Shown here one piece after another: positions 1-63,890 of a stretch of 64,000 nucleotides of DNA (position 1 is the stretch's first letter; each line of letters starts with the position of its first letter). The notes under the pieces are model-generated. The model did no database searches and was not told the DNA's origin. It worked only from the letters and a program-made list of their open reading frames with translations. Origin of the DNA: Cyanidioschyzon merolae (lineage: Eukaryota). The translations under genes were made by a program, and so were the position numbers. The stretch lies in assembly GCA_000091205.1 (NCBI GenBank), contig AP006492.2. One strand, given 5' to 3'.

Positions 1-18
1 CCCCCCATTCCCCCATTC
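1..18. repeat. Two degenerate units of CCCCCCATT (complement AATGGGGGG); telomere-type repeat remnant at the window edge
   Basis: Sequence begins ccccccatt cccccatt, followed by a more degenerate ccccatt. AATGGGGGG is, to my recollection, the telomere repeat of Cyanidioschyzon merolae. Only about 2 units are visible. Confidence 0.3.
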
Positions 19-169
19 GACGCAATGCCCCATTACTGCGGTGTTCTCAGAGCAAAAGCATCTGTCAGAGCGATGTCTACCAATCCAGGTTCGTTCGGGT
101 ATTTTTCCGGCGGTACGATCTGAGCAAATACGCATCTGTCTTATCTACATCCAGCACACCAGTGCCCTT

Positions 170-3100
170 ATGGATCTCCTTCCAGCGCTTTGCTTTTGTT
201 TGTTTCGACAGAGCCTGTTTTACTGACCAGACGCCGAGATTGCCGGATTGATACTTGTTTCGGAAAATCCTTCGTCACGCTGGACAATTTCGGTGATTTT
301 TGTCGCATTTACCTAATCTCGGCTGTACTGATTGTATCTGACTTTCTATCGTGCGCCGTTTACCTACCTTGAGCACCCGTTGTAGCCTCTCTATCGCCGC
401 TGTGGGTGCTCTCCGGAAGCAGGGCTGCTCTGACATACCACTGGGCGCGTTGGAAGGGGCTTGGTTCATGCTACATGGGATCAGGGAGATTTATTTTCTT
501 TGGAGCCTCCAAGCGGATCTTGCAGACGATTTGCATGCGGTAGCGTAAAACGGCGTACTATCTGTTCACCGCGACGGTGTTAGCGCTCAGACGCAGCATG
601 CCTGCTCCTAGTCCCGAAATTAATTGCGTTTTGGATGAGTTGCCCAAGTGTCTCATATCACTCTCCACTGAAAGTCACACGGAGGGCAGGCCGGTAGTCT
701 CGCGGCACGCAGACCTTCCGATTAAATGTAACACTTTGACCATACGCGAAATCATCTTCTTTACGTTTACACTAGGTTGCAATAGTACTTGCTATCCTGT
801 TTGTGCATATTGGTTAATTTTTTTGCATTTTCTCTGTCGTGCGTCCTGGTAACGCATCGCGAAATCTGGCCGTCACGTCACCCAACGTGCGCCTCTCCGA
901 TCAAGAAAAACGCGGTAATGACCTCTTCTGGAGCGACTGCTCTATCGGGGCCACTTGTATTTGCGATCGAATCGTAGCAAAGTATAGTTTTGGCTTCAGT
1001 GGCGTTCCAATCTTAAAGTAACTCTATTCACCAGATTCTCGCCGTTCAAAGCAGAAGCGTCCAATGAGATGTTCTCCCAAAAAATCTGACACTTATGTAG
1101 TATGATGTAGTGGGTTTGGGGTGGCCGGTGCTGCCGGGTGTCAGAATGAAATGAGACATATTGCCTAGCGAAGAGGGTCAGGAAAAGAAGAAGAAGCAAC
1201 ATGGGGGGCCTTACATCGAAGGCCGAAATTGTGACTTCTGTACGACAAGATGGTGGTGGAATCTTATCTTCTCCAACATATCAATGATCCGTACGACTGA
1301 TTGTTGCGAGACGCTATCAGAAACCGTGGCGGATCGTAGGCCGGGTATGTTTGGAGCTTTTCTTTAGGACGTTGGCATTTGGACAGCGACCTGCATCGGG
1401 ACGTAACGCTTATTGCGAAAATGATGTTTCCGGAAAAATTTTTCCAAAAGACTTTCATCAACTACCTGATTGTTTTTAATGGGAAAACATCGGGGATAAG
1501 TGAGCGAGTGCATGCCTTTCTCAAAAATTACGCCAAATTCCTCGTCTTCCGTGCTGAACACAGGGGTGACGCAGACATTTACGAATACAGGGCAAAGAGG
1601 TGCCTTATGAATGTGAGGAACCATAAAATGGCAAACCTCGATTGTTTCATGATACGCGTCGTCTTTGTGCTGTACCCGGGCACATTTCGCGAAGTGATGC
1701 TTGCAATCATCGATGGTATGAAGAACGATCGCCAGCATGGACAGGAGATCAGACTCGTCGACAAGAGGACATCACGCAGGATAATGAATGATGCTTCTGT
1801 AATTCGCGCCACTATTCTAAAACATCGTTCGGTCTTGGGTCATGTCAACCCAAGAGAAAACTCTCGGATATGAGAAACGACGGAGAGAGTTGTTACTCCC
1901 TCATCCTGCCCTGCTTCATGTTTTCGGTCCGAGACCTCGACCGCAGAGCCGACATGGGGCTGAGTGAGGAAAAAATGACGAGTGGGAGAAACGACATTGA
2001 AGTCTTCTCCAGATGCGCTTCAATGTCGGTCAGTTATGCGAGTCCAAGTCACATTTTGTGAGTAACCACTCCATAGTACTTCACGACTTCACGATAGAGA
2101 TTTGTCCAGAGCTCGATGTAATCAACAAATAGGTCTCCGGTGAAGATCGGGACGCCTACGAGAAGAATATCTTCGATTTCAAGCGTCCCGAACCGGCCAA
2201 AAAAAGTTTATTCACTGGAACAATCGATCTCGATGTGGCGCACATATGTGTACACCATCAGCGGTTGAAGGCAGCTCGTCCTATCCCGTCTTCGTTACGG
2301 GCGTTGCCGAAGAACGAACACAGGTTGACGGGCTATGGAACGTATAAGCCCCATGAAAACCACTTTGGCGTCGGCCTTAGTCCCTGGTGCACGAATATCA
2401 TAACCATCGCTGTTCCTAAGCGAAGGGAAGATTGCACTGACTGCACCTTACGTCACAAACATATGCTTCTGCTGAGGTTTTCGAGAGAGAGATACAATCG
2501 AGAATCCGGTATAACGAATGCAAGGAAGAAGATGGTTACGTGGAATGTAGGAATGAAGGATCACCTGGAAGCTTTGAGCGTGGTGACGAGCTGACGAGCG
2601 GACATTCAAGCTTTTCTGAAATTCATGGAAGTTCGTGTTGCTCATTCCGTGGCGCTGTAGGGCGAGTATACAAAGCACCGCTGGGCACGTTTGCGTATGA
2701 ATCTGTGCCGTGGTAAGCATCACGCATTCGCGAGCTTTTTCAATCGATTGAACGCCTTGAAATAGGATCAAGTCAGAGGCTCGTTGTTACATATGGTGTA
2801 GGGAGCTGGGCTCCGAAAAAAAGGGACTCCACCAGCTCCAACGGCAGGAATGGGCAAGGAGTGCGCACTGGGTCTCGCTACGGTACCTGTGGGTGGGTTC
2901 CGAACATCGTATACACACCACGAGTTGGGATGTACTCTTCAGAAGATGGAGATTGAAAAGTGCCCGCGGAGTCGTCATGATATAAAAAAGTAAGGGATAG
3001 CTGACGGGAGAGGAAATGGAAAGGAGGGAAGAAGCTCGTGGACTACTTGCATTAGTAAGTACGACTACCATCGGCAAGAAACGTATGGAGTTCGCGAACC

Positions 3101-3375
3101 GAGTCTTTAACGCTGCAATCAATCTACGGAGATGTGCGGGAATAGACAAAAGACTCCCAGCGGTGACACGAGAGTCCATTGTTGGACAACCTCTTAAACT
3201 GGAACTATATGAGAAACAATGGTGTCCGCAGTAGGTGGCCGGTCGAAAAAGGCGGGAAGGCGTCTGCACGTCAGTTGGCGACTTCTTGTCTAGGGCGCGG
3301 TTGCCGCCACTACTGTACACTGTCGGCAGCAACGTTTTTGTTTCGAAAGATGTTTGTTGTCGTCGGCTGCGGTGG
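170..3375 (+). mobile_element. Fanzor/TnpB-like element, copy A (most degenerate of the three long copies)
   Basis: Collinear DNA similarity to copies B and C over the left end, the ~1 kb non-coding leader, the decayed nuclease ORF and the 3' conserved block (ggcgtctgcacgtcagttgg ... ctagggcgcg ... gccgccactactgtacac). Boundaries are approximate (+/-30 bp), judged by loss of inter-copy similarity. Confidence 0.6.
1199..3330 (+). pseudogene. Fanzor/TnpB-like RuvC nuclease pseudogene (copy A); multiple frameshifts, an internal deletion and an in-frame TAG
   Basis: ATG at 1199 in Kozak-like context (aagaagaagcaacATGG), conserved with copy C. Fragments in three frames match copies B and C: RFNVGQLCESKSHF, TNIITIAVPKR (RuvC-I region), FRTSYTHHELGCTLQ, RMEFANRVFNAAINLRRCAG (RuvC-III). 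In-frame TAG at 2658-2660 where copy B has TGG. Confidence 0.55.
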
Positions 3376-5585: not shown

Positions 5586-7774
5586 AGTTCCACGATTTGC
5601 TTCCTTGCCAGACAGATCCTCGAAAAAGTCCGACTACAGGTTTCAGATCGCCCGAGCTGCGGTGCAGGGTTGTTTCCAGCACTGGTGCCGAGATCGCTAC
5701 AAACCCGTGATCGTTTTGTTCTCCAGCACTATAGGCCTCGCCAAAACTAGGTACAGTGCTCTTTGATAACACAGCTGTCGGATCCACGAAGGTATTGCTT
5801 TAAGTCAGAGGGAACGCTCGAGACTGAGCGCCCCGAATAAATCATGCTATCCGTTGAGGACACAAAGATGCACTTGAGGGCTTTCGCGATCGCCCAGAAG
5901 CGCCTTCCGGAGATTCGATCCAGAGCGATGCGCGTCTCGATGACGAGTCCGCCTCGGGGCGTTTTTTTCTTTTTGATGAAAAAACGTTTGCATTGACAAT
6001 GCATCCCAGAATTTGGAACGCACGATGGCTTCCGGGGATATCTCGATCATAGTGCACCTGTCCTCAAGTCCCATTATCCATACTACCTCTCTGATATATT
6101 GGTCGTTTCGTATGTTCTATCGAGCGCCGAGCCTGTTGTGAGCACCCGCTGTAGCGCTTATACCGCTGAAGCAGGTGCTGCACAGAGACAGAACGGCTTT
6201 GCCATACCACTAAGGGCGTCCGCTCGAGGAATGATTCACCTGAAACGGAATCAGGGCTATTTGTCATTCTGGGAACATGCAAAATGCGCAGACAGACCTA
6301 CTACCTGCGACAGCGCGAAGTGCTGTACTAGGATTCCACTGCGACCAGTGCGAGGCCCAACGCAGCGTCCTGTGCATATTCTCAGGATAAAATGCGTTGT
6401 GAACGAGCTGCGCAGGTCTTGCAGCAGCAGCAGCAGCAGCGGCAGCGGCCACTTTAGAGGCATACCGAGCTCTAGCCCGGTAGACTCGACCGGCTCGCGG
6501 GACCTTCCGCCTCGAACATAAGCTTCCGATAATACGGCGATCTATTTCCCCTTAAACGCTTATCGTAGAGCGGGAAAAAATTTTATATCGTTTCTTGTAA
6601 ATCGTAGGTCACTGTCCTTTTTCCTGTATGGCGCGCTCGATACGTGCATCTCCAAGTATGGCACTTACGAGACACGACGCATCTGTCGCCTTTGAAGAGA
6701 AACGCGACCGTGACGACACGTTTTCTTGATGTTCTAACGGGCAAGCTGTATTTGCGTGGAAGTCGTAACAAAATATAGTTTCCAGTTCGATTGTGTCTCA
6801 ACCCTCAAGTAAACATATTCAATTGATTTCTCGCAGTATATAATAGAAGGGTTCAAAGAGCGTTCTTTTTCACACAAAAAAATGAAAAGAAAAGCTATGA
6901 AAAAGCAAGTTGACGATCCTGGAGGCCCAGTGTCGCCTGCTGCCAGAAATAAAAACAAAAAACAGAGCCGAGTCCAGAAGAACAGGAAAAGAAGAAGAAG
7001 CAAAAGGGGAGGCCCTAAGTCGAAGGCGGCAAGAAAGACGACTGTTCGACGAGATGATGGTGAAAGCCTGTCTTCTTAAACAAATCAAGCATCCTTACAG
7101 GGAAAATTTGCGAGACGCTATCAAAAAACGATTCGATTCGTACTCCATTGGTATTTTCAAGGCGTTGTCAAGACTGATGCATTTGGCGAGGGAGATGTAC
7201 GAAAACGTGGCGCACTTGGAAACGGTCGAGATTCCGGACGATTTTTTCGGTAAGACATTTATTCGACACCTAATGCTTGGCACAGCGGAAACGCGGAGGG
7301 AAAATGTGCTAGTGCATGGCCTTTACGAAAAACATCCCCTCTACAGCTTCAACAGTACTCTGTACAGGGGTGATTCGAATGTTTACGTATAAGGGGCGAC
7401 GAAGTACATCACGAAACTGTGGTTCACGTGATCGTGAAACTCGAACGTTTCATGATACGCGCCGTGTTTGCGCTGTACCCGGGTATCTCTCGCAAAGGAA
7501 TATGGGAGATTATCAACGGCATCAAGAACGATCGCAAGCATGAAGGTGAAGTCGAATTCGTCGACACGAAGGCGTTTAACGACAGCACGAATGATACTTC
7601 TGTAATCCATTCGGTTATACAAGAGCACCGTGCAATCTTGGGGCCGGCGAATCCAACAGACAAGACATCAGAGTTGAAAAAAGATAAGGAAAGATACTAT
7701 CGTCTTATTCTGCGCTATTTCATGTTTCTCGACCGAGAACTCGAGCGAAATGCGGAGATGAAGCTGAGTGAAGA

Positions 7775-7781
7775 AAAAAAG
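7775..7781 (+). other. Candidate -1 programmed ribosomal frameshift site: slippery heptamer A_AAA_AAG at the junction of upstream and downstream reading frames of the copy-B nuclease gene
   Basis: Frame-0 codons are gaa|aaa|aag (7773-7781). The downstream conserved frame (frame 2) opens after TGA at 7769-7771 and codes EDWERRKAVLMGKRFNVVPM, conserved with copy C (EELGRRKAAIVGKRF). The upstream frame ends at TAA 7809-7811. Copies A and C change frame by -1 at the same place. Confidence 0.35.
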
Positions 7782-8128
7782 AAGATTGGGAGAGACGGAA
7801 GGCTGTCCTAATGGGTAAGCGCTTCAACGTGGTTCCAATGTGCAGCATCAAGTCACATTTCGTGAATATCGATTCGGACGTGTTTTACGGCATCATGAAG
7901 GAGATCAGTCCAGTGTTCACTGTTATCAGGGATGACTTCACCGGTGAAAACCGGGCGACGTACTTGAAGAACATCTTCAATTTCAAACGGCTCAAAGTGA
8001 GAAGCCAAAAGGTATTCACTGCGTTGATCGAGACCGATGGAGTAACCTTGTATGTACACTATCGGCGCTTGAAAGTGGACCGTCCGATTGTGCCTTTCGC
8101 TTCGCCCTCTGCGAAGCATTAAAAAATC

Positions 8129-8428
8129 AAAGAAGCGGATCCTGCGACACAGGAGGTGCAGGATGACGACTTTGTCGCTGACGCGGTGAAGGATGAAAAA
8201 GAGAAAGAGGCGGAACCTGTGATGCAGAAAGTGCAGGATAACGACCGTGTCGTTGGCGCGGTGAAGGATGAAGGTCAGAAGGAGGCGGATCCTGCCGAAC
8301 AGAATGTGCAGGATAACGACTTAATGGTTGACGCGACGAGGCATCAAGGAAAGAAAGAGGCGGATCCTGCCATACAGGAAGTGCAGGATAAAGACATTGT
8401 GGTTGGCGCGGATCCTGGGAACACGAAT
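8129..8428 (+). repeat. In-frame 75-bp tandem repeat, 4 units, inside the copy-B nuclease ORF just upstream of RuvC-I
   Basis: Units encode KEADPATQEVQDDDFVADAVKDEKE / KEAEPVMQKVQDNDRVVGAVKDEGQ / KEADPAEQNVQDNDLMVDATRHQGK / KEADPAIQEVQDKDIVVGADPGNTN. Copy C has a single unit (YEKEADPAIQKLQDSDFVVGLNPWNTN). Confidence 0.8.
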
Positions 8429-10585
8429 ATCATCACCATCGCAGCACCGAAGCGTGCGGAAGATGGCATGGACGGTAATTTACGCCAGAAAGACATGCGT
8501 CTGCTGAGGTTCTCGAGAGCGAGATACCATCGAGAATCCGTTGTAGTGAATGCAAGGATGATAATCGTTACGTGGAATGCAGGAATAAAGCATCACCTGG
8601 AAGCTTTGAGCGAGGCGACGAGCCGCGGAGCGGTCTATGAAGCTTTTCGGAAATTCATGGAATTTCGTGTTGCCCATTGGGATGCGCTGTGGGAGGAGTA
8701 TAAAAAGCCCCGGTGGGCTCGTCTGCGAATGAATCTATACGGTGTGAAGCAGCGGGCGTTTGCGAATTTTTTCAATCAGTTGAGCGCCTTTGAGGGGGAT
8801 GACCGTCAGAGGCTCGTAGTAGCGTATGGAGCAGGGCGCTGGAAGAACAGAAAAGGAACTACGCCAGCTCCAGCGACGAAGCTGTACAAGGAGTGCGCCC
8901 GGCGTCTCGTTACGATACCTGTATATGAGTTCCGGACGTCCTATACATACCAGGAACTGGGCTGCACGCTTCAGAGGGTAGAGATGGAAAAGTGCCAGAA
9001 GAGCGCTGAGGAAATTGCAAAAGTACGGACCGCTGGCGGAGGAGCAACTGTAAAGGAAGGCGAAAGTTCAAGGGTTACTCGTATTGGTGAGTACAGCTCC
9101 CAACGGCACGAAATGTATGGAGTTCGTGAACCGAGATTTTAATGCCGCTATCAATATACGGAGATGTGCGGTGCTGGAGAAAAGACCTCCAGACTGGACA
9201 CAAGAGGATTTTATTGGACAACCTCTCAAAGTCGAACTATATGAGAAAAAATGGAAGCAGACGTTGGTGGCCGGTCCAAAAAAACGGGGAGGCGTCTGCA
9301 CGTCAGTTGGAGACCCCTTGCCTAGGGCGCGTTCGCCACTACTGTACACGGCCGGGGGCAACGTTTGTCTTTTGAGAGGCGTTCGGTGCGGGCGCGTCAC
9401 GTCGCTTATTCAGAACGTATTTGCGAAGAGTACCTAGAGTATATGTGGTAATAGTTGATGCTTTTCGTGAAGATATTGCTGCCATGGCTGTAACAGGACT
9501 GATGTGACAGAAAATGTGGAAAATGGGCAACTCGAGTTCTTCTGTATTCGATACATCATCCGCTGCCTTGTCGTTTATCTATCTTCCGAGGGTCCTGTGT
9601 CCATTTATTAGCAACGGATCCGTTTACCAATTTGTTTGCAATGATATAGAACAAGATCAATTGTTTAGAATCGATACTGGCCGCTTCTAGAATGCCTCCA
9701 GCTGTGCTCAAGGTGCTGTGGTAATGCTTACATAGCGTACAGCTCGTCTCAGGATGTGACTGCCTGGCATGATGTGCCTCTGGACCGAGTAACGGTAACT
9801 GCGCATCTACGTCTTCACGGCTTACCACCACTTCGTTCTCGTTTTTTTCTAGTGTACAAGACATAAACATAATCCGGAAATCAGCACAACACTTCAGACG
9901 GTTTTATGGACGTAGCCTACGAGCAACGGTAGGCAACAGTGGTGAATATATCGAGACGATGCCTCGACCGCCAGAACAAGCTATAAGCACTTTCAATGTT
10001 AGAGCTATAAGTGCGCTGTGAGGCTGGCGGCCCTGCTTCCATTCGTGCCAAGCGGAGCCGGAGCCCGTAGGCAGGCGTCACGAATATTAGCTTTTCCTCA
10101 AGAGGAATCGGATTTTGGTGAAATTTGCGGTTGTACGGATCGAGTCAAATTTGCTCCAGAACCTCTCCTCAGGACTAGAATGTGCTCAAGTACAACGAAA
10201 CTCAAAAAACAGTTCCAGACGCTCTACTGCAGACATACTCGCTACATGCAACTCGGAAACCGTATTCCGACTACAAAGAGAAGAAAGGGTACCAAGATAC
10301 CGCCATTACCACCAAGGCTATCATCGGGGGCAAGCTCATAGGCATAGGTAATCATTCCTTTACGTTCCAAAAGCAAATTCTGGTCCATTCTTTCTGTTCA
10401 TCAGATCTCTGAATGTCAGCCCCCGAAGAGGACCTCAGATGACACTTCGCGCACAAATATCCACATTAACGCATTCGTTCATTCGTACTCTCGGGTCTTG
10501 TGAACATGAGTGGAATATTGTCGCAACAGAGGATCAGCATAGACGTGATCTAGACTGTGGGCAAATTAACAGTTGAAACGTTCGC

Positions 10586-13500
10586 TCACGCAGTCGGTGG
10601 AGCTGAAGATGTCGCTGATTCCGAGGCGCTCGCAGACGTCGACACAGAAGCTGAAACTGAAGCACTCGCTGATGCACTCGTTGATGCACTCGCAGACACC
10701 GTCGCAGAAGCTGTCGCAGAGACTGTTGCAGACACCGTCGCAGAGGGTGCCGCTGTCACAGCCACGGGACTCGGAGTCGGTGTTGAACTAATCACCACAC
10801 ACTGGTTGTTGATGCACTCCTCGTCAGCGCGGCAGCAACGCACCTTGCTCACAAGGTTATCCGAAGGGATCAGGTACGTCCCGCACTGCTTCGTAGGGTC
10901 CTTGCACACACAGAATGACGGCAGCAGCACCTGTTGTTGCTGCTGTTGCTGCAGTTGCTGCTGCTGCTGCTGGTTGTTGTTGTTGCTGAACGGGTTGTAC
11001 GTGCAGTTCTGCGTCTCGGCGTTGCAGCACTCGGGGCCGCAAGCAATATAGCTCGAGTTCGATACGTTGCTAGTGGTGCCGCTCAGCGAGTTCGACACAT
11101 ACCCGTAGGTCTGGCACACGTACTCGGTCATCGGCTGGAAGCACTCGTTGCTGAGCCCCAGGCAGCAACCAGCCTCCAGACACTGCTGTGGCGAGTAGCT
11201 CGTGCGCTGCGTCCCGTGCTGCTCTCCGTACAGGAGCGTGTTCAGCAGACGCACAAACTGGTTGTTGTTGATGTTATTGTTCAGCTGCTGGTTCTGATTC
11301 ACCGCGTTCGTGCACGGCTGGCGCTCAAACTCGCCCACCGCGCACGTCTTCTCGGGCTGGAAGCAGTACGGGTTCGACTCAAAGTCGCTCTGCTGCTTGC
11401 CGTTCTGCACCCACTGGTTCTGCGCCTGCGAGTCGTAGCAGCAGCCCTGGGCATAGCACGTAAACTGGTTGATACCCGCGTTGCCGCACGGCTGGCGCTG
11501 CGCTCCCGGTGACGGGCAGACGGGTACTGGTGCCTGCACCTCCTGCAGCGCTACAGAGGCCTGCGGTGCATGGTTGATGTCGTAGTAGCACCAGGGTGCC
11601 AGGATGCCGTTTGCCGTTGGCTGCCAGCAGCATCCCGGTATCGCAGTGCACTCGTCGGGATAGATGTAGCTCCAGCCGCAGGGGACGCGCTGCGTCACTG
11701 GAACAGCGCTGCACGCCGCTGAGACGCTCTTCAGGGTGCACGCGTTCGTCTGGGAGTTAAAGCAGCACCCGACTTGCTCGCAAGCGTCCTGGTTTGTGTA
11801 CTGGCCCGGAGAACCGCAGATTTCACTCGTGCAAACTGGTGTTGGCGTTGCACTCGGTGTCGGGGTTATAATAGCAAGTGTCGCACCAGAGGGTAGAATT
11901 GTAGAAAGCTGGTCGGTGAAAGTTTGAAGCACACTTTGCAGTTCACTGGCGAGGGATGTGTCTCCTGAGATCTTAATCACATAGGTCACAACACTGCCGC
12001 CCGAAGTGCGCACCAATGCTCGTTCCAGACGAAGATTGCTCTTGTCTAATGTGGTGGCGAGGCGCCTTGATGTGCCCGAACCGAAGACCGTGTCGCAGTT
12101 ATCAGTCACGCTGACATTCACTACCTGGCCCGTGAAGCGAGCCTCGAGATCGTTCTGCAAATCCGTCGCCACGGCCAAACAAAGAGAAAGATTCTGAACG
12201 GATATCGCAATCGAGGTGGAAATCGTCGTCGGCACGATTGTTGGTGACGTTGTTGCAGTTGGAGTCATCGTCGGCGTCATCGTCACTGTCGTTGGAGACT
12301 CTGTTACAGTAATCGTTGGCGATGATGTAATTGTCGGAGTCATCGTCGCAGTCGGTGTCGGTGTAGGTGTAGGTGTAGGTGTCGGTGTCGGTGTCAGTGT
12401 AGGTGTCGGTGTCAGTGTCGCAGTCGGTGTCGCAGTCGGTGTCGCAGTCGGTGTCGGTGTCGGTGTCGGTGTCGCAGTCGGTGTCGGTGTCGGTGTAGGT
12501 GTCAGCGTGGGTGTCGGGGTCGCAGTAGCAGTTGGCGTAATCGTTGGTGTCAGAGTTGGCGTTGATGTTGGCGTAGGCGTAGGGGTAGGCGTAAAGAACG
12601 TTTCACTCAGTGCGAAAACATCATTGAGATAGCCAGGAATGCTAGTGTTTGAGTATCCAAATCCGCCAAACATGACCGGATCAGTCCCACTTGTGTTCCA
12701 GAAAACTGACCCAGTTCGACCGCCAGGCGAAACACTAGGGCTGGTCTTATTCAAAAATCCATATACGGAAAGTGCAAATCCATTTTGGCTGCCATTGATC
12801 CACGCCCACTGACCCAGTGTCATATCAAATACCCACAAATCGTTCAAATCACCGGGGCTCTCACGAGTATTCCCATATCCTTCACCACCAAAAAGTAGCA
12901 GATTACCCAAAGAATCCACGAAACTCACGCCTGAGTCTCTTGCACCAGGGTAACTGGTTGGGGCGAAAGCACCGAGACTTCCATAAGATCCTGGATTGTT
13001 AATAGTGGTATTCCCTGCGATAAAAATCCATACAGATTGACTTATGTTGTAGACCCAGAGATCATTCAACTTCCCTTGTCCTGGTGCTGTGCTGTCGCCG
13101 TAGCCAAGACCACCGAACATCCAGAGATTTCCTTCAAAATCTGTCCAGGTATTCGCGACGATGCGCGCACCTGGTGCACTCGAATTGTTCGCCACGCCAG
13201 GTGCGCTATAGTTGCCAGGCTGGTTAGCAAGTTGTGATCCGCCTCTGTATGCCCATTGCAGTGTAGTGGGATTAAATGACCACAGATCGGAGACAGAATC
13301 CCCAAGATTATTTTCACCACCAAACAACCAAAAAGTACCGTCAGCACCCAACCAGAATGATGCACTGCCTCGGGACCCAGGATTGTAGGAAGGACCAAAG
13401 ACGCCCTCCGCTCCATATATCGTGCCGGCATTTACCGTATCATTCCCGCTGACCCAAGTCCAGACTCTGCTTTCTGTATCGTACATCCACATGTCGTTCA

Positions 13501-18530: not shown

Positions 18531-21500
18531 TTATGCTTTTTTGGTTCGACAGAACGTTTCTACTGACCATGCATCCCATGTTTCCGGGTCGATATTGGCT
18601 TTCGGGAAAGCGTCCATCATGTTGGACTACTTCTGCACGTTACATCGCTTTTGCTTACTCTCTGCTGTACTGGTCGTCTCATTTTTTCTATTGTGCGCCG
18701 GTTGCCTGCCATGAGCACCCGCCGTAGCATCTCTATCGCTGGTGCGGATGCGCTACGAAAACAGAACAGCTTTGGCATACCACTGAGCGCGTCGGAAGAG
18801 GCATTGTACAAGCGATACGGAATCAGGGCTATGTATATTTTTGGGAGCCTCCAATCTGGACAGGCTGACCTTCTGCCTGTGGTAGCGGGAAGCGGTATTG
18901 TAGGATTCCTCCGCAACCAAGGTGATGCCCAGACCCAGTATACGCGCTCCTAGTGCCAAAATCAAATGCGTTTCGGACGAGGTGCTCAGGTGCGTCACAT
19001 CACCCACCACCGCAGAGTCACACGGCGTACAAGCCGGTAGAGTCTCGCGGCTTGCAGACCTCGCGCCTAAAAGGCAACTGTTTGACCAAACGCAAAAACA
19101 TCCTGCTTTGAACGTTTATTGTAGATGGCAATAGAACTTGCTATTCCGTTTGTGGATATTGGTTAGTTTTCGGCATTTTCTATTTCGTGCGCCCTGGCAA
19201 CGCATCTCGGAATCTGGCCGTCACTTCACACGACGTTCTTCTCGCCGATGATGCGAAACGCGGTAATGACCTCTTTTGGAGCTATCGCTCTATCGGGGCC
19301 AGTTGTATTTGCGCTCGAATCGTAGAGAAGGATAGTTTCGGCTTCAATTGTGTTTCATACTTCATGTAAGGATATTTAAGTGATTTCAGCCGTTCAAAGC
19401 AGAAGCGTCCAATGTGTTCTCCCCCAAAAAACAAAAGGTAGACTCATGTAATTGGAAGTAGAGGGTTTTGGATGGCCGGTGTTGCCCGAAGTTAGAAGAA
19501 AACGAGGAACAGTGCCTCGCAAAGAGAAACAGGACAGGAAGAAGAAGCAAATGGGGGAGGCCTTTTGTCGATGGCTGCAAGAGTGACGTCTCTACGATGA
19601 GATGGTGGTGGAATCCTGTCTTCTTCGACGTATAAAGGATCCGTACGAGGGAGAGTTGCGAGACGCTATGAGAAACCGTGTCGACTTGTACTCCATGAGT
19701 ATTTCCAAAGCGTCGTCACGACTGATGCATTTGGCGAGGGAGATGTACGAAAACGTGGCGCACTTGGGAACGGCCGAGATTCCGGCGATTTTTTCGATAA
19801 GACCTTTATTCGACACCTGATGCTTGCCACAGCGGAAACGCGGAGGGAAAATGTGCTAGTCCATGGCCTTAACGAAAAACATCCCTTTTACAGGTTCGAG
19901 GCTACTCGATACAATGCTGACCGGGATATTTACATGTACGGAGCGATGAAGTATATCACGAACCTGAAGAATCTTTTGGCAGTGAACCTCGAACGTTTCA
20001 TGATACGCACCGTGTCTGCACACTGCCCGGGCATCTCTCGCAAAGGAGTATGGGCGATTATCAATGGCATCACGAACGATCGTAAGCGTGAAGATGAGGT
20101 CGAATTTGTCAGGGAGAAGGCGTCATGCAGGAGTACGAATGGACTTCTGTAATCCGTGCGGCTATACAAGAGCACCGCGCAGTCTTGGGGTTGGCGAATC
20201 CAACAGACAAGATGTCAGACTTGAAAAAGATAAGGAAAGATACTATCGCCTCATCCTGCACTATTTCGTGTTTTTAGACCGTGAACTCGAACGCAAGGCA
20301 GCGATGAAGCTGAGTGGGGAAAAAATGAAGAGTTGGGGAGACGGAAGGCGGCCATAGTAGGGAAGCGCTTCAACGTGGTTCCAATGCGCAACATCAAGTC
20401 ACAATTTGTCACCATCGACTCCAGAACCCTTCATGGCATCATGAGAGAGATCAGTCCCGAGTTCAATGTTAACAGGGCGGAGGTGACCCGTGAAACCCGC
20501 GAGACGCACTGGAAGAATCCCTTCGATTTCAAACGTCACAAAGTCAGCAAACAAAAGAAATTCACCGGGATGATCGAAACCGATGGATTAGCCATGTGTG
20601 TACACTGTCGGCGGTTGAAGGCAAATCGTCAAGTTCCGTCTTCGATATTGCCCGTTACGAAGCATGAATATGAGAAGGAGGCGGATCCTGCGATACAGAA
20701 ACTGCAGGATAGCGACTTTGTCGTCGGCCTTAACCCCTGGAACACAAACATTATAACCATCGCTGTACTAAAGCGTCCGGAAGATTGCACCGACGGCAAC
20801 TTACGTCAGAAATATATGCGTCTTCTGAGGTTCTCGAGAGCAATATACAATGGAGAATCCGGTATGATCAATGCAAGGAAGAAAATCGAGACTTGGACTT
20901 CAGGAATGAAGGATCAAATGGAAGCTTTGAGCGAGGTGACGAGCCGCGGAGCGGACTTTGAAGCTTTTCTGAAATTCATGGAAGTTCGCATTGCGCATTG
21001 GGATGCGCTGTAGGAGGAGTATACAAAGCCTCGGTGGGCTCGTTTGCGTGTGAACTTGTACTGCGGGAAGCAGCGTGCATTCGCGAACTTTTTGAATGAA
21101 TTGAGTGCCTTGAAGAAGGATGAAAGTCAGAGGCTCGTAGTATCGTATGGGGCAGGACGCTGGGCGTCGAAGAAAGGGACTACACGTGCTCCAACCACAA
21201 GACCGTACAGGGAGTGTGCACGACGCTTCGTTACGATACCGATAGATGAGCTCCGAACATCGTATACTCACCATGAACTGGGACGTACACCTCAAAAAGT
21301 CGAGATGGAAAAGTGTCAGCAGAGCCCTGAGGATATAAAAAAGTACGGACCGCTGACGGAGGAGCAAATGGAAAGGAAGACGAAAGTTCGTGGACTCCTT
21401 GCATTAGTAAGTACAACCAATAATGGCAAGGAACGTATGGGGTTTGTGAACCGAGACTTTAACGCCGCCATCAATATCAGGAGATGCCCTGTGATGGAAA

Positions 21501-21718
21501 AAAAAAGACCCCCAGAGTCGACACGAGAGAGAATTCTGTTGGACAACCACCCAAAGTGGAACTATATGAGAAAAAGCTGGAATAAGTCGTACGTGGCCGG
21601 TCCAAAAAAACTGGGAGGCGTCTGCACCTCAGTTCCAAACGTTCTGACTAGGGCGCGTTTGCCGCCACTGCTGTACACCGCTGGCGACGTTCGACTTTAG
21701 AACAGCGTTGATGGTGCT
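18515..21718 (+). mobile_element. Fanzor/TnpB-like element, copy C
   Basis: Collinear with A and B across leader, ORF and 3' block. The right end (...gcgacgttcgactttagaacagcgttgatggtgctgcg) is shared with fragment E up to ...gttgatg(g/a)tgct and ends within about 4-8 bp of the WD40 gene ATG (21722). Confidence 0.65.
19551..21700 (+). pseudogene. Fanzor/TnpB-like RuvC nuclease pseudogene (copy C)
   Basis: ATG at 19551 (caaATGGGGGAGG). In-frame TGA at codon 12. Frameshifts near 19815 and 20100, plus the family-wide -1 junction at about 20320. In-frame TAG at 21011-21013 (copy B has TGG). The C-terminal part is continuous: IDELRTSYTHHELG...GKERMGFVNRDFNAAINIRRCPVM (RuvC-III). Confidence 0.6.
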
Positions 21719-21721
21719 GCG

Positions 21722-23482
21722 ATGAACCGCGTCCTCCTTGATCGTCTCTTTCCTTTTGTTCGAGCGCAGGTTCCGGAACAAGTCGAGTTCTCGCTGAGCG
21801 AGCACGGTACGGGTCGTTGTTTCGCTTTTACACCGCTCTACGGGAACGTTCTTGCAGTCGGACTCGCTGACGGCACCATTGCGTTATATGACCTCGTAAC
21901 GAGAGCGCTTGCCAAAAAGCTCTACGGACACACGAGCGACGTGTTCTCGCTAAGCTTTGTGCCACGCTCTACCTGGCTGTTGAGTACGTCTCTGGACGGC
22001 AGCCTGCGCCTTTGGGATGTATCTCAGCTGCGCTGCATTGTCTGCGTGCGCTTCGAGGCACAACTTGCGAGAGCTTCCGCACATCCACGCTTTCGGCAGA
22101 ATCGCCTGTGTTGCGTCTCACAGACTGGCCAACCGGTTCTTCTGGTACAGCTGCCTGTCGAACCAGGAGAGTACCATGTGACTCAGTGCCCGTCTGTTTG
22201 GGTGCTGTGGTCGGGCCCCGCATCCACGCTGACGATGAGTGCGCAGGAGCGGACTCCGACTGAGACTTTACAAGTACCGGAGTGTGCACACGTCCATGCT
22301 TCAGACACCGAGGACGGCAACTCGGTCTGTACGCGGAACTCGGATGCGCTCCCACCGGTACCTGAACGTGCACCACTGCTTCGAGAGCTCGGTACGCACG
22401 GCGCTGTGGAGTTGCCGCCGACGCTGACGGGAAGCATCACGATGCCAGTAGCGTACTTGGCTGCTGAATTCGACCCCACTGGTGCCTACATCATCACACA
22501 TGCTGCAGAGCAACCTGGTCTCTTGAAGGTTTTCAAGATCGAGCGCGCTACAGAGGCAGGCTCGGGTCCGAGGCTCACCGTTCACTGTTCCGCATCGTTC
22601 GCACTGCCGCCCCGTGCATTCGTGAAACAAATACAATTTGCTGAACGAGGGGACCTGTTCCTGGTTGTGGCGCATGATCGAATTGTTCGGGTTTTTGAGT
22701 GGAAACCGTTCGAACCGAACAAAGTAAGACTCTGGCGAGAGCTGAAAGATCGCGTTTCCTCAGTACAATGGCGATGGGCTGCATTCGCGAGCCACGACGA
22801 ATTTCTAGTTGCTGGAACAGCGGCAAGCGCTGACCATCGCCTCTATATTTGGGATCTGAAGGCGAATCAATTAGTGAAACAATTGGATGGGCGCCCCAAA
22901 GAGTCCCTCAGTATGCTAGCGTACCATGCGAATCTTCATGCACTGCTAGTCCTGGTGTATCAGAGTGGCTCCATTCTTGTCTATCACAAGACCGTAGCGG
23001 AGAACTGGAGTGCATACGCACCATCATTTCGAGAAGTATCTGAAAATGTCGAGTATGTGGAGGCAGAGGATGAATTCGACTTTGACCCCGACGGGAGCAG
23101 CGTATATGATCGCCGTCGTCGCAAACATTTCGCTCCAGCTGATGAGGATGCTACCGTGGTCGACATAACCGGGAGGCTCCCCGATTCTGATCCTGGATAC
23201 CAGCGATTCGCGGAAGCCGGCTGGAACGCGTCGTCATCGTCGTCCATGTCGTCGTCCAATGAGGAGCTGCTCTGTCTACCGGTAGACATCCCGCTGGATC
23301 TACCTCCGTTAGCATCAGAGGCTTCCTGGATCGGCGAGTATCGCGCGCTACGCAGACACGAATCGGAACAGCAAAGCTGCAGCGCAACGACGCTTCGACA
23401 AGACGATGCGTCGGCAGGTACCTCAAGTCAGGCAGTCATGCGCACTGTACGTGATGATCCTGCCGGCCAGCTGGCCAAATAG
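21722..23482 (+). CDS. WD40-repeat protein
   Basis: 586 aa. It contains GLADGTIALYDL...GHTSDVFSLSFVP...STSLDGSLRLWDV and a later ...DHRLYIWDL, which are typical WD repeats. No further family assignment. The start codon abuts the element C terminus. Confidence 0.7.
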   Translation: MNRVLLDRLFPFVRAQVPEQVEFSLSEHGTGRCFAFTPLYGNVLAVGLADGTIALYDLVTRALAKKLYGHTSDVFSLSFVPRSTWLLSTSLDGSLRLWDVSQLRCIVCVRFEAQLARASAHPRFRQNRLCCVSQTGQPVLLVQLPVEPGEYHVTQCPSVWVLWSGPASTLTMSAQERTPTETLQVPECAHVHASDTEDGNSVCTRNSDALPPVPERAPLLRELGTHGAVELPPTLTGSITMPVAYLAAEFDPTGAYIITHAAEQPGLLKVFKIERATEAGSGPRLTVHCSASFALPPRAFVKQIQFAERGDLFLVVAHDRIVRVFEWKPFEPNKVRLWRELKDRVSSVQWRWAAFASHDEFLVAGTAASADHRLYIWDLKANQLVKQLDGRPKESLSMLAYHANLHALLVLVYQSGSILVYHKTVAENWSAYAPSFREVSENVEYVEAEDEFDFDPDGSSVYDRRRRKHFAPADEDATVVDITGRLPDSDPGYQRFAEAGWNASSSSSMSSSNEELLCLPVDIPLDLPPLASEASWIGEYRALRRHESEQQSCSATTLRQDDASAGTSSQAVMRTVRDDPAGQLAK

Positions 23483-33229: not shown

Positions 33230-33660
33230 TTCATTTCCAAAAAAAAAATAAGGAATGAGCCGCAGTGCGCACTTCAGTAGGCCGAGATGGAGCGCCGGCA
33301 GCCAAGCGCATCGGTAATAGAGAAGCACGCAGAGCTGACAGAGCCCCAAATGGTACTAATGGCACGAGTTCGAGGAATCGGTGTACTGATGAGTTCCATT
33401 AGAGGCAATGCACGCATGGAATTCATAAACCGAGGCGTCAACGCCGCCACCAACATCAGGAGATGTTCAGCGCTCCAGACGAGACCTGCGGAGCATTCGC
33501 GAGCGAACGTTATCGTGATGCTTCTCAGGCTCCAAGTTTGCATGGAGAAACTGTAACCGATAGCAGGGAGCCGGTAAAAAAGGCTGAAAGGCGTCTGGGC
33601 ATACCTATTAATTTCCATTAGATGCTCGTGAAACGTTGTCGCTCCATCGGGCATATTCCA
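33230..33660 (+). mobile_element. Short 3'-end derivative of the Fanzor-like element (fragment D)
   Basis: ORF 33287-33556 encodes ...TEPQMVLMARVRGIGVLMSSIRGNARMEFINRGVNAATNIRRC, a decayed RuvC-III NAAINI region, followed by a diverged ggcgtctg block. It shares a subfamily-specific sequence and the same 5' breakpoint (...cacttcag(t/a)aggccgagatgg) with fragment E. Confidence 0.5.
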
Positions 33661-62742: not shown

Positions 62743-63435
62743 TCATCGCGAGTCGTCCGTTTCGGTACCCCATACACGATAGGGTCGCTTCTGCAGCGCG
62801 GAATTGTAGTATCGTTCGTCGAGTGTGACCTCGTCCGCCAACCAGGTCGGCCGCTCAAACGCCGTCTCGGGGGTTGGCAGCTCGATCTCCGCGAGGATAA
62901 GAGGAGCATTATCACCCAAGAACTCATCGATCTCCCAAACAAGGCCAGCTTCCTTTGCCGGTATTCGATAGCGCACTTTTTCGATAAGTGGCTGTACACA
63001 GAGTGTGTTCAACAACTCTCGAGCGTCCTCGACTGGGATCGGGTACTCGTACTCGGCCCGCGTGCAACCGTGGGTGCGTCCCTTGATCGTCAAGAAGCCG
63101 CTCATGCCAGCAACACGGACGCGTACGGTGCGGTCGGGTTCACTGCACAGGTAGCCTTGCGCGAGATGTGTGCCCTGCGAAGTGCACAACAGCCGACGAA
63201 CTTGGTCAGCGTGCACCAGAAACTTGCGCTCAGTCTCGCGGTTCGCTGCGCGGTTCACCCCACCGTGTTGCATTCGCGGAGCACTGGATCCTAAAAGCAC
63301 CGAGATTTTCGAATCTAGCTTTAGAGTGTGAACTCGAGGAGGAGGAGACCACCTGAACGTGGTGCGCCCAAGAAACGGCCGTGCAGCAGGCACGAAGAGC
63401 ATCATCAACGTCGTTCGAAAGTCGAACGACGTCAA
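62743..63435 (-). CDS. CYTH-domain protein (CyaB/thiamine-triphosphatase-like triphosphate tunnel metalloenzyme)
   Basis: ETERKFLV (the CYTH hallmark E-x-E-x-K near the N-terminus) ... RVRVAG...FLTIKG ... EYEYPIPVEDARELL ... LVWEIDEF ... LILAEIELP. The likely start is Met at 63273 (MQHGGV...), giving about 176 aa; the upstream 54 in-frame codons are uncertain. Confidence 0.7.
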   Translation of the reverse strand: MTSFDFRTTLMMLFVPAARPFLGRTTFRWSPPPRVHTLKLDSKISVLLGSSAPRMQHGGVNRAANRETERKFLVHADQVRRLLCTSQGTHLAQGYLCSEPDRTVRVRVAGMSGFLTIKGRTHGCTRAEYEYPIPVEDARELLNTLCVQPLIEKVRYRIPAKEAGLVWEIDEFLGDNAPLILAEIELPTPETAFERPTWLADEVTLDERYYNSALQKRPYRVWGTETDDSR

Positions 63436-63890
63436 CGGTGTACAGTAGTGGCGAGTGACCCGCCCTAGTCAGAACGTCTCCAACTGACGCGCAGAAGCCC
63501 CACAGTCCTTCACAACCGGCCACCTACTACTGCGTCCAACTTTCTCTCAAATAATTCCACTTTGAGAGATTGTCCAATAAAGTTCATTCTTGTCGAGTCT
63601 GGAGGTCTCGTCTGCAGCACCGCACATTTCCTTCTATGGATAGCGGCATTCAAGTCTCGCTTCACAAACTCCGTACGTTTGTTGCCCCCGTTGTTTGTAC
63701 TTACTAATGCAACAGGCCCTCGAACTCGCGCCCTTCTTTCGATTTGCTGCTCAGTCACCTCTTCGTGCTTTTCTACCGCCGATGCGCTCTGCAGCCTGCT
63801 GCCCATCTCGACCTTCTGAAGTGTGCATCCCAGCTGATCCCTTATGTTTTCAAATTAACGCAAAGCTTTATGCGGTTAGGTGAGAACAGT
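63398..63890 (-). mobile_element. Short 3'-end derivative of the Fanzor-like element (fragment E), minus strand, same subfamily and 5' breakpoint as fragment D
   Basis: ORF 63510-63806 (-) encodes ...VEKHEEVTEQQIERRARVRGPVALVSTNNGGNKRTEFVKRDLNAAIHRRKCAV (RuvC-III region). The reverse complement of 63436-63510 matches the 3' conserved block (gcgtcagttggagacgttctgactagggcg...gccactactgtacacc). The terminus ...cgttgatgatgct is shared with copy C. Confidence 0.5.
63408..63432. other. Perfect 11-bp-stem / 3-nt-loop palindrome (aCGTCGTTCGA aag TCGAACGACGt) at the subterminal right end of fragment E
   Basis: Read directly: 63409-63418 cgtcgttcga, loop 63419-63421 aag, 63422-63431 tcgaacgacg, with flanking a/t extending the stem. 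The homologous position in copy C (cgacgttcgactttagaacagcgtt) is a degenerate version. Confidence 0.7.

Follow-up and report, generated by a model that had tools for sequence, protein, structure and literature searches.

We found that the frame switch located at one A-run in three transposon copies of the window (the whole 64-kb stretch of DNA that was analyzed) is, with a probability of about 0.92, the ordinary loss of one A from a slippage-prone run in pseudogenized copies of the Fanzor1 family CMe-1A. A functional CMe-1A element encodes one continuous protein of ~734 aa, and its open reading frame (ORF) contains at codon 293 an uninterrupted A7 run that would gain or lose single bases via polymerase slippage in DNA replication; in each window copy, a run that is one A short throws the rest of the ORF into the −1 frame. 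Replication slippage is the mechanism we infer, and the lesion is mutational whether it was inherited or recurrent. The switch is ordinary damage in a published transposon family and needs no new explanation.

The window carries decayed copies of CMe-1A

The WD40 gene at positions 21722 to 23482 is identical to XP_005534766.1 / BAM80159.1 of C. merolae 10D, and the host of the window is therefore Cyanidioschyzon merolae 10D. CMe-1A is the single Fanzor1 family described in the genome of C. merolae (Bao & Jurka 2013, Mob DNA 4:12, PMC3627910). It comprises ~150 copies, each ~80% identical to a consensus of ~3 kb, and it has neither terminal inverted repeats nor a transposase of its own, while some of its individual copies still code for intact proteins (PMC3627910). 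The published consensus, available in the supplement of that work, is 3169 nt long and contains a single ORF of 734 aa.

Self-comparison of the 64-kb window revealed three long, same-strand copies of one element together with a short fragment, all of which were aligned by blastn with the published 3169-nt consensus. Copy A (positions 317 to 3349, + strand) is a full-length and heavily decayed element that covers consensus positions 115 to 3166 at 73% identity. Copy B (5975 to 9381, + strand; flanked by MDH and Kelch genes), also full length and decayed, covers positions 2 to 3169 at 81 to 86% identity, and copy C (18548 to 21686, + strand), a third decayed full-length element that ends just upstream of the WD40 gene, covers positions 5 to 3145 at 81% identity. 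The fourth copy, identified with blastn and tblastn, is a 3′-terminal fragment on the − strand (63430 to 63838; consensus positions 2737 to 3145, 80% identity by blastn), and it stops short of the junction at which the frame changes in the long copies. Judged from these alignments, copies A, B, and C are old pseudogenized insertions of the known Fanzor1 family CMe-1A.

At the protein level, a profile of 20 CMe-type proteins was aligned by hhalign with five published housefly Fanzor1 proteins at a probability of 98.2% (E value of 4.9e-14, 508 columns). The alignment takes in the GxDPG and (V/I)DE(F/Y)RTS motifs, and it spans the junction as one polypeptide. Of the candidate RuvC-like catalytic D...E...D motifs, GADPGNTN and VDEFRTS fall on invariant Fanzor1 columns, and NRDFNAAINI was seen by inspection and lies outside the hhalign region. 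A Pfam scan of the stitched copy B protein and the intact relatives yielded no significant family, the sole match being Cas12f1-like TNB at an E value of 0.23, and a profile search of PDB sequences yielded no match at an E value of ≤1. The AlphaFold2 model of P0001, built on a 20-sequence alignment, had a mean pLDDT of 33 and was too poor for fold comparison. In Rfam, nothing relevant was found for copy B, for which one sub-threshold snoRNA match lay outside the region of interest.

One base is missing from an A-run of copies A, B, and C

Three-frame translation and tblastn with an intact relative both bore out the claim of the initial annotation that the three long copies switch to the −1 frame at the same A-run: each of them leaves the upstream frame at one aligned position, and the downstream two-thirds of the ORF lie in the −1 frame. 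The DNA of the three copies is gap-free in the alignment at the junction. When A, B, and C were aligned with in-frame relatives, the missing base fell within the A-run, which is where the shift had been placed.

In copy B, the A-run plus a G occupies positions 7774 to 7781 (+ strand), with A7 at 7774 to 7780, one A fewer than the A8 of its metagenome relatives L022/L023. The run reads GAAGAAAAAAAGAAGAT in copy B versus GAAGAAAAAAAAGAAGAT in L022 (A8, EEKKED, in frame). The upstream frame of copy B reads gaa aaa aag at 7773 to 7781, and the canonical A_AAA_AAG that had been assigned to this junction is present, in the correct phase, at 7775 to 7781. Copies A and C switch to the −1 frame at an A6 run, located at 1970 to 1975 and at 20320 to 20325 (both + strand), respectively, which is one A below the in-frame A7 of the family; copy A reads GAGGAAAAAATGAC versus GAGGAAAAAAATGAA in the consensus. 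The A_AAA_ATG of both copies does not qualify as a slippery heptamer, and X_XXY_YYZ in zero-frame phase is found only in copy B. The aaaaaatg reported for copy C stands at 20320 to 20327 as given, whereas that reported for copy A at 1969 to 1976 is right in sequence but one base off in position (1970 to 1977). The conserved peptides quoted from the two sides of the junction agree with copies B and C, but copy A has degenerated far more (CYSLILPCFMFSVRDLDRRADMGLSEEK / MRFNVGQL).

The consensus and intact relatives cross the junction in one frame

The 734-aa ORF of the consensus crosses this site in one frame: its protein reads ...ELERKAEMELSEEKNEESERRKAALMGKRFNVVPL... and its DNA reads GAGGAAAAAAATGAAGAG, with an uninterrupted A7 run (the ORF across the site, with its A7 run, is also given as MELSEEKNEESERRKAALMGKRF). 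The region of codon 293 is GAG GAA AAA AAT GAA GAG, with the junction run at consensus nt 1783 to 1789. The consensus ORF has just two A7 runs, of which this is one, and the run is among its two longest homopolymers.

Direct inspection in C. merolae 10D covered the window, and the relatives compared with it were metagenome loci and the published consensus. A search with the stitched copy B protein retrieved 50 metagenome proteins, and most of those reaching the site cross it in one frame, e.g., MKLSEENNEEWERRKAFLMGKRF. In the DNA of the best match, L001, the ORF is uninterrupted, and the window copies are one base short of it in the A-rich stretch. A scan of metagenome contigs yielded 80 loci from hot-spring Cyanidiales, 79 of which were scored for the distance between conserved peptide anchors flanking the junction. 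This distance was 108 nt (in frame) in 67 of the 79 loci, and the others had 107 nt (6 loci), 109 nt (3 loci), and 105, 110, and 119 nt (1 locus each). Collapsing near-identical contigs at 97% identity left 47 scorable metagenome clusters. Apart from those in frame, 4 clusters were at −1, 2 at +1, and 1 each at +2, −3, and +11. Only L001/L003 are intact and L021 is nearly so, all of them in frame. The initial annotation had advised asking whether any copy has its two halves in one frame; the two halves are in one frame in the consensus, in L001/L003, and in 38 of the 47 clusters.

Length variants cluster in uninterrupted A-runs

Among the metagenome relatives, the junction sequence comes in two forms, one with an interrupted and one with an uninterrupted A-run. 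No indel was present here in the copies with the interrupted run GAAGAGACAAATGAAGAG, and copies reading GAAGAGACAAATG never shift. Indels at the junction occur mainly in copies with the uninterrupted run, as A6 (−1), A8 (+1), and A9 (+2). The A7 form is in frame in L004, L073, and the 10D consensus; A6 gives the −1 state of L062/63, L080, and window copies A and C; A8 gives +1 in L033, and A9 gives +2 in L078/81. The −1 state has other origins in L065, where a C-interrupted run lost one base, and in L074/76, which have a deletion a few bases upstream of the run.

Among 50 independent copies, the junction is the commonest site of 1- to 2-nt indels. The second commonest frameshift site is another A-run ~100 nt upstream (A6 plus G; 7677 to 7683 in copy B, + strand), which carries 7 independent 1-nt indels among the 50 copies, including that of copy C (~20223). 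Within copies A, B, and C, A-runs of at least 5 nt hold 8 of the 18 frameshifting indels. This clustering of length variants in uninterrupted A-runs is the pattern expected of replication slippage at homopolymers.

The same property bears on the heptamer of copy B, which is not independent of the junction: a shortened A-rich run yields A_AAA_AAN-like sequence by construction. AAAAAAG is not rare in the window either, with 14 occurrences versus 7.4 expected and a second one in copy B at 7677 to 7683. The coincidence of heptamer and junction is weakened on both counts.

The window copies are dead, and their low omega is a legacy

Compared with the consensus ORF, the numbers of frameshifting indels and in-frame stops are 7 and 11 in copy A and 5 and 4 in copy C. 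Copy B has 6 frameshifting indels (near 6949, 7006, 7419, 7780, 9018, and 9251), and 3 in-frame stops (at 7390, 8120, and 9051); a repeat within its ORF has also expanded by 225 nt, in frame. A tandem repeat with a 75-nt (25-aa) unit in 3.8 copies (TRF) is located at 8129 to 8411 (+ strand) in the Fanzor ORF of copy B; about one copy of the unit is present in the consensus, and the number varies among relatives. A single uninterrupted ORF of ~734 aa is present in none of copies A, B, and C. Since each copy bears 5 to 7 frameshifts and 3 to 11 stops, none could give a functional protein via a −1 frameshift, and no window copy can make the Fanzor protein with or without slippage. The same holds beyond the window, where every −1 carrier from the metagenomes is also interrupted by stops or shifts of frame elsewhere, on one side of the junction or on both. 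The initial annotation is silent on the many additional frame breaks and stops in every copy.

For a large part of the family's history, purifying selection genuinely acted on its Fanzor ORF. When each copy was compared with the family consensus by the Nei-Gojobori method, dN/dS was ~0.40 in the true frame, and the two shifted frames gave 0.96 and 1.13; past purifying selection on the family had already been suspected by Bao & Jurka (PMC3627910). Downstream of the junction, omega was 0.30 to 0.49 in −1 carriers, and the median for in-frame copies was 0.33. These low values reflect selection before inactivation, since copies full of stops give the same ones. Ongoing translation in the −1 frame was considered as their source and rejected, given that stop-riddled copies do not differ and the datable branch between copy B and L022 is neutral.

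That branch is accessible because copy B and its nearest relative, L022/L023, are 98.7% identical over 7487 to 9385 (1.9 kb), with the 5′ part and the flanks diverging more. They have two lesions in common, a codon-387 stop and a +1 insertion at aa 686. In the near-identical zone, copy B differs from L022 by 5 synonymous and 18 nonsynonymous changes (omega of 0.99). The older lesions in common and the omega of 0.99 indicate that the run length changed in an already dead, neutrally evolving copy. Copy B owes its A_AAA_AAG to a T-to-A substitution that lengthened the run and that the in-frame L022 carries as well, together with the loss of one A. In an exact-product look-up of the 103-aa ORF of copy B, nothing was on record as its ortholog in other strains.

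Independent losses or a single inherited deletion

With the switch assigned to the loss of one A, separate origins of the three losses are in our view more probable than descent from a single dead source copy. The competing scenario, possible but the less likely of the two, has A, B, and C descend from one dead A6 copy after mobilization in trans or local duplication. It would account for the −1 state of all three window copies, and CMe-1A is devoid of a transposase of its own, so that dead copies could still be copied (PMC3627910). Moreover, copies A and C both have stops at consensus codons 47 and 524, a hint of common descent or gene conversion, and L080 matches copy C in its −1 state, its stop at codon 524, and its deletion in the A6 run. 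One of the A/C stops (TGG to TAG), however, is a recurrent change that several unrelated copies carry. Among the metagenome copies with a pure A-run, those at −1 make up only about a quarter to a half, and the chance of three independent −1 events in one 21-kb stretch is roughly 2 to 10%, which counts against recurrence. The deletions in A and C may be related by descent.

At the locus orthologous to copy C in 99%-identical metagenome strains (L082 and L083), the same A6 is found, which, on this sequence comparison, puts the deletion before the ~1% divergence from these strains; an old deletion of this kind suits an inherited lesion, but it fits a recurrent origin as well.

A single source copy draws no support from the substitutions. 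Derived substitutions common to A, B, and C are not in excess, their normalized values being 0.74 to 1.54 versus medians of 0.88 to 1.39 for random copies, and the value for the pair of copy B and L022 is 5.99. The three copies form no clade in a neighbor-joining tree, none of the other −1 carriers is the nearest relative of any of them, and the nearest relative of copy B has an in-frame run length. Furthermore, +1 and +2 run states occur in other copies. Thus, of the proposal that all copies inherited one inactivating homopolymer indel from an already dead progenitor, the kind of lesion stands, while the pattern of substitutions does not back a single dead progenitor.

Slippage in transcription or translation

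The loss of one A in replication was also weighed against readings in which slippage acts on expression. RNA polymerase stuttering on the A6 to A8 run, partly rescuing out-of-frame copies, is very unlikely. A-runs are known polymerase slippage sites and the junction is a homopolymer, but 6 to 7 As are shorter than the runs usually needed for appreciable transcriptional slippage, and the other stops and frameshifts are beyond repair by slippage at the run. We give as little credence to the A7 run being a reversible length switch, in which slippage of DNA, RNA, or ribosome toggles or partly rescues Fanzor expression, and to out-of-frame copies being a reservoir able to regain the frame, as the A7/A8 pair of copy B and L022 might suggest.

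A programmed −1 ribosomal frameshift at the A-run, giving an OrfA of ~300 aa plus an OrfAB fusion nuclease, was one of the two explanations put forward in the initial annotation, as an ancestral feature of the element, and we regard it as more improbable still. A_AAA_AAG is in the correct phase in copy B, the shift is in the −1 direction in all three copies, and the −1 carriers have an omega of less than 1 past the junction, all of which speak for such a site. This heptamer is efficient in E. coli and weak on eukaryotic ribosomes, and a literature search for Fanzor together with ribosomal frameshifting returned nothing relevant. Programmed frameshifting is not supported, since the consensus, the intact copies, and ~80% of the relatives read the junction in a single frame, the outcome named in advance as speaking against it. 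In addition, the A_AAA_ATG of copies A and C is not slippery, and the substitution behind the copy B heptamer is found in the in-frame L022 as well. Nor would a −1 slip be of use to the copies concerned, as the −1 carriers are all broken further by stops and frameshifts, and the +1 and +2 run variants are beyond rescue by −1 slippage.

The downstream stimulatory stem-loop that had been suggested was absent from the folds of copies A, B, and C. In copy B, the 99 nt that follow the run fold no better than shuffled sequences (z score of −0.51), and the corresponding z scores are −1.76 for copy C and −2.70 for copy A, while that of the in-frame L001 is about as good (−1.84). The three copies are not alike in their predicted folds, and no structure 3′ of the site was either conserved or unusually stable.

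An apparent frameshift due to a sequencing or assembly error in the homopolymer, or to a very short intron, is the least credible reading: homopolymers are error-prone on some sequencing platforms, but the same A6 occurs at the copy C orthologous locus in independent metagenome assemblies, whose agreement rules out sequencing error there, the three runs differ in sequence context, the host genes of the window are uninterrupted, and the in-frame relatives differ by a single base and by no added stretch of sequence, on which ground a short intron was rejected.

Implications and comparison with known systems

For annotation, pseudogenized CMe-1A (Fanzor1) is the proper label for the three loci, in place of a nuclease gene with two ORFs and a frameshift. 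This example also calls for caution, in that a frame break common to repeat copies, even one at a textbook heptamer, can come from recurrent homopolymer slippage; the decisive comparison in such cases is with the family consensus and outgroup copies. At least one copy in hot-spring Cyanidiales is intact by sequence and could supply an active red-algal Fanzor1.

The junction of copy B resembles those of IS1/IS3 transposases and E. coli dnaX in having the identical heptamer in phase and a downstream ORF in the −1 frame. Unlike in those systems, the arrangement in CMe-1A is not conserved, with the heptamer being absent from copies A and C; it is accompanied by no stimulatory stem-loop, both ORF halves are broken, and the host is a eukaryote. 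The published CMe-1A family shares with the window copies the host genome, full-length alignment, and the same protein motifs, and the identity of the window copies to the consensus over its full length (73 to 84%) agrees with the ~80% reported for the family. There is no essential difference between the two, apart from the window copies being dead members that each lack one A at the codon-293 A7. As for the change itself, the counterpart is homopolymer slippage in pseudogenes and decaying transposons, with which it has in common bidirectional one-base variation (A6 to A9), restriction mainly to uninterrupted runs, and recurrence in unrelated copies. We noted no difference from that process, and the other A-runs of the CMe-1A ORF behave alike.

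Selection and stop codons in the Fanzor1 ORF

Among 50 independent copies of the Fanzor1 transposon family CMe-1A, including the decayed full-length copies A, B and C of the window, dN/dS against the consensus was ~0.4 in the true frame versus ~1 in the shifted frames, and this held even in copies with many stop codons. Moreover, stop codons numbered only about one-third to one-half of what we estimated for fully neutral decay. Together, these values indicate that the Fanzor1 of this family was under long-term purifying selection, which preceded the death of each copy.

Family-wide, the same TGG (tryptophan) codons have become TAG or TGA through separate mutations in many copies; one such codon is a stop in 7 of the 50. 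Consensus codon 524 exemplifies these recurrent stops (window 2658 in copy A and 21011 in copy C). Since the same codons were hit independently, stop codons in common are poor evidence of common descent in the CMe-1A family.

Copy B and its surroundings

When window 6700-9385 was compared with positions 1834-4481 of L022, a CMe-1A-type locus on a hot-spring Cyanidiales metagenome contig, the two were ~99% identical over window 7487-9385, whereas identity was only 75-90% in the 5' 0.8 kb, and the 3' flanks were unrelated. Copy B and L022 are mosaic relatives, and this uneven pattern suggests recombination or gene conversion among element copies. L022 also holds a piece of a Kelch gene that is 95% identical to window 11336-12532 and arranged differently.

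Just 5' of the RuvC-I motif, the Fanzor ORF carries a 75-nt (25-aa) tandem repeat (8129-8411 in copy B), which is also present in the metagenome loci and proteins (P0001-P0046). Its unit resembles KEADPATQEVQDNDxVVDAxKxE and is found about once in the 10D consensus, four times in copy B and up to ~6 times in metagenome proteins. Rfam also matches snR75, a C/D-box snoRNA, on the 5' border of copy B (5923-6012, plus strand), at 23.6 bits, below the gathering score of 40 (E = 0.06); this match is probably due to chance.

The chromosome region is unusually rich in CMe-1A, with three full-length copies in 21 kb and two C-terminal fragments (33266-33514, plus strand; 63430-63838, minus strand).

Metagenomic copies

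One metagenome copy, L058, bears an 11-nt net insertion, a GACA-type microsatellite (AGACAGACAGACAGATAGAC), immediately 3' of the A-run at which copies A, B and C switch to the −1 frame. In JGI hot-spring metagenomes, an apparently intact CMe-1-type Fanzor1 was identified at L001 (2800-5256) and L003 (2923-5256), where the reading frame stays open for 819 and 778 codons, respectively, with no stops or frameshifts. This copy from a wild Cyanidiales genome is a candidate active red-algal Fanzor1.
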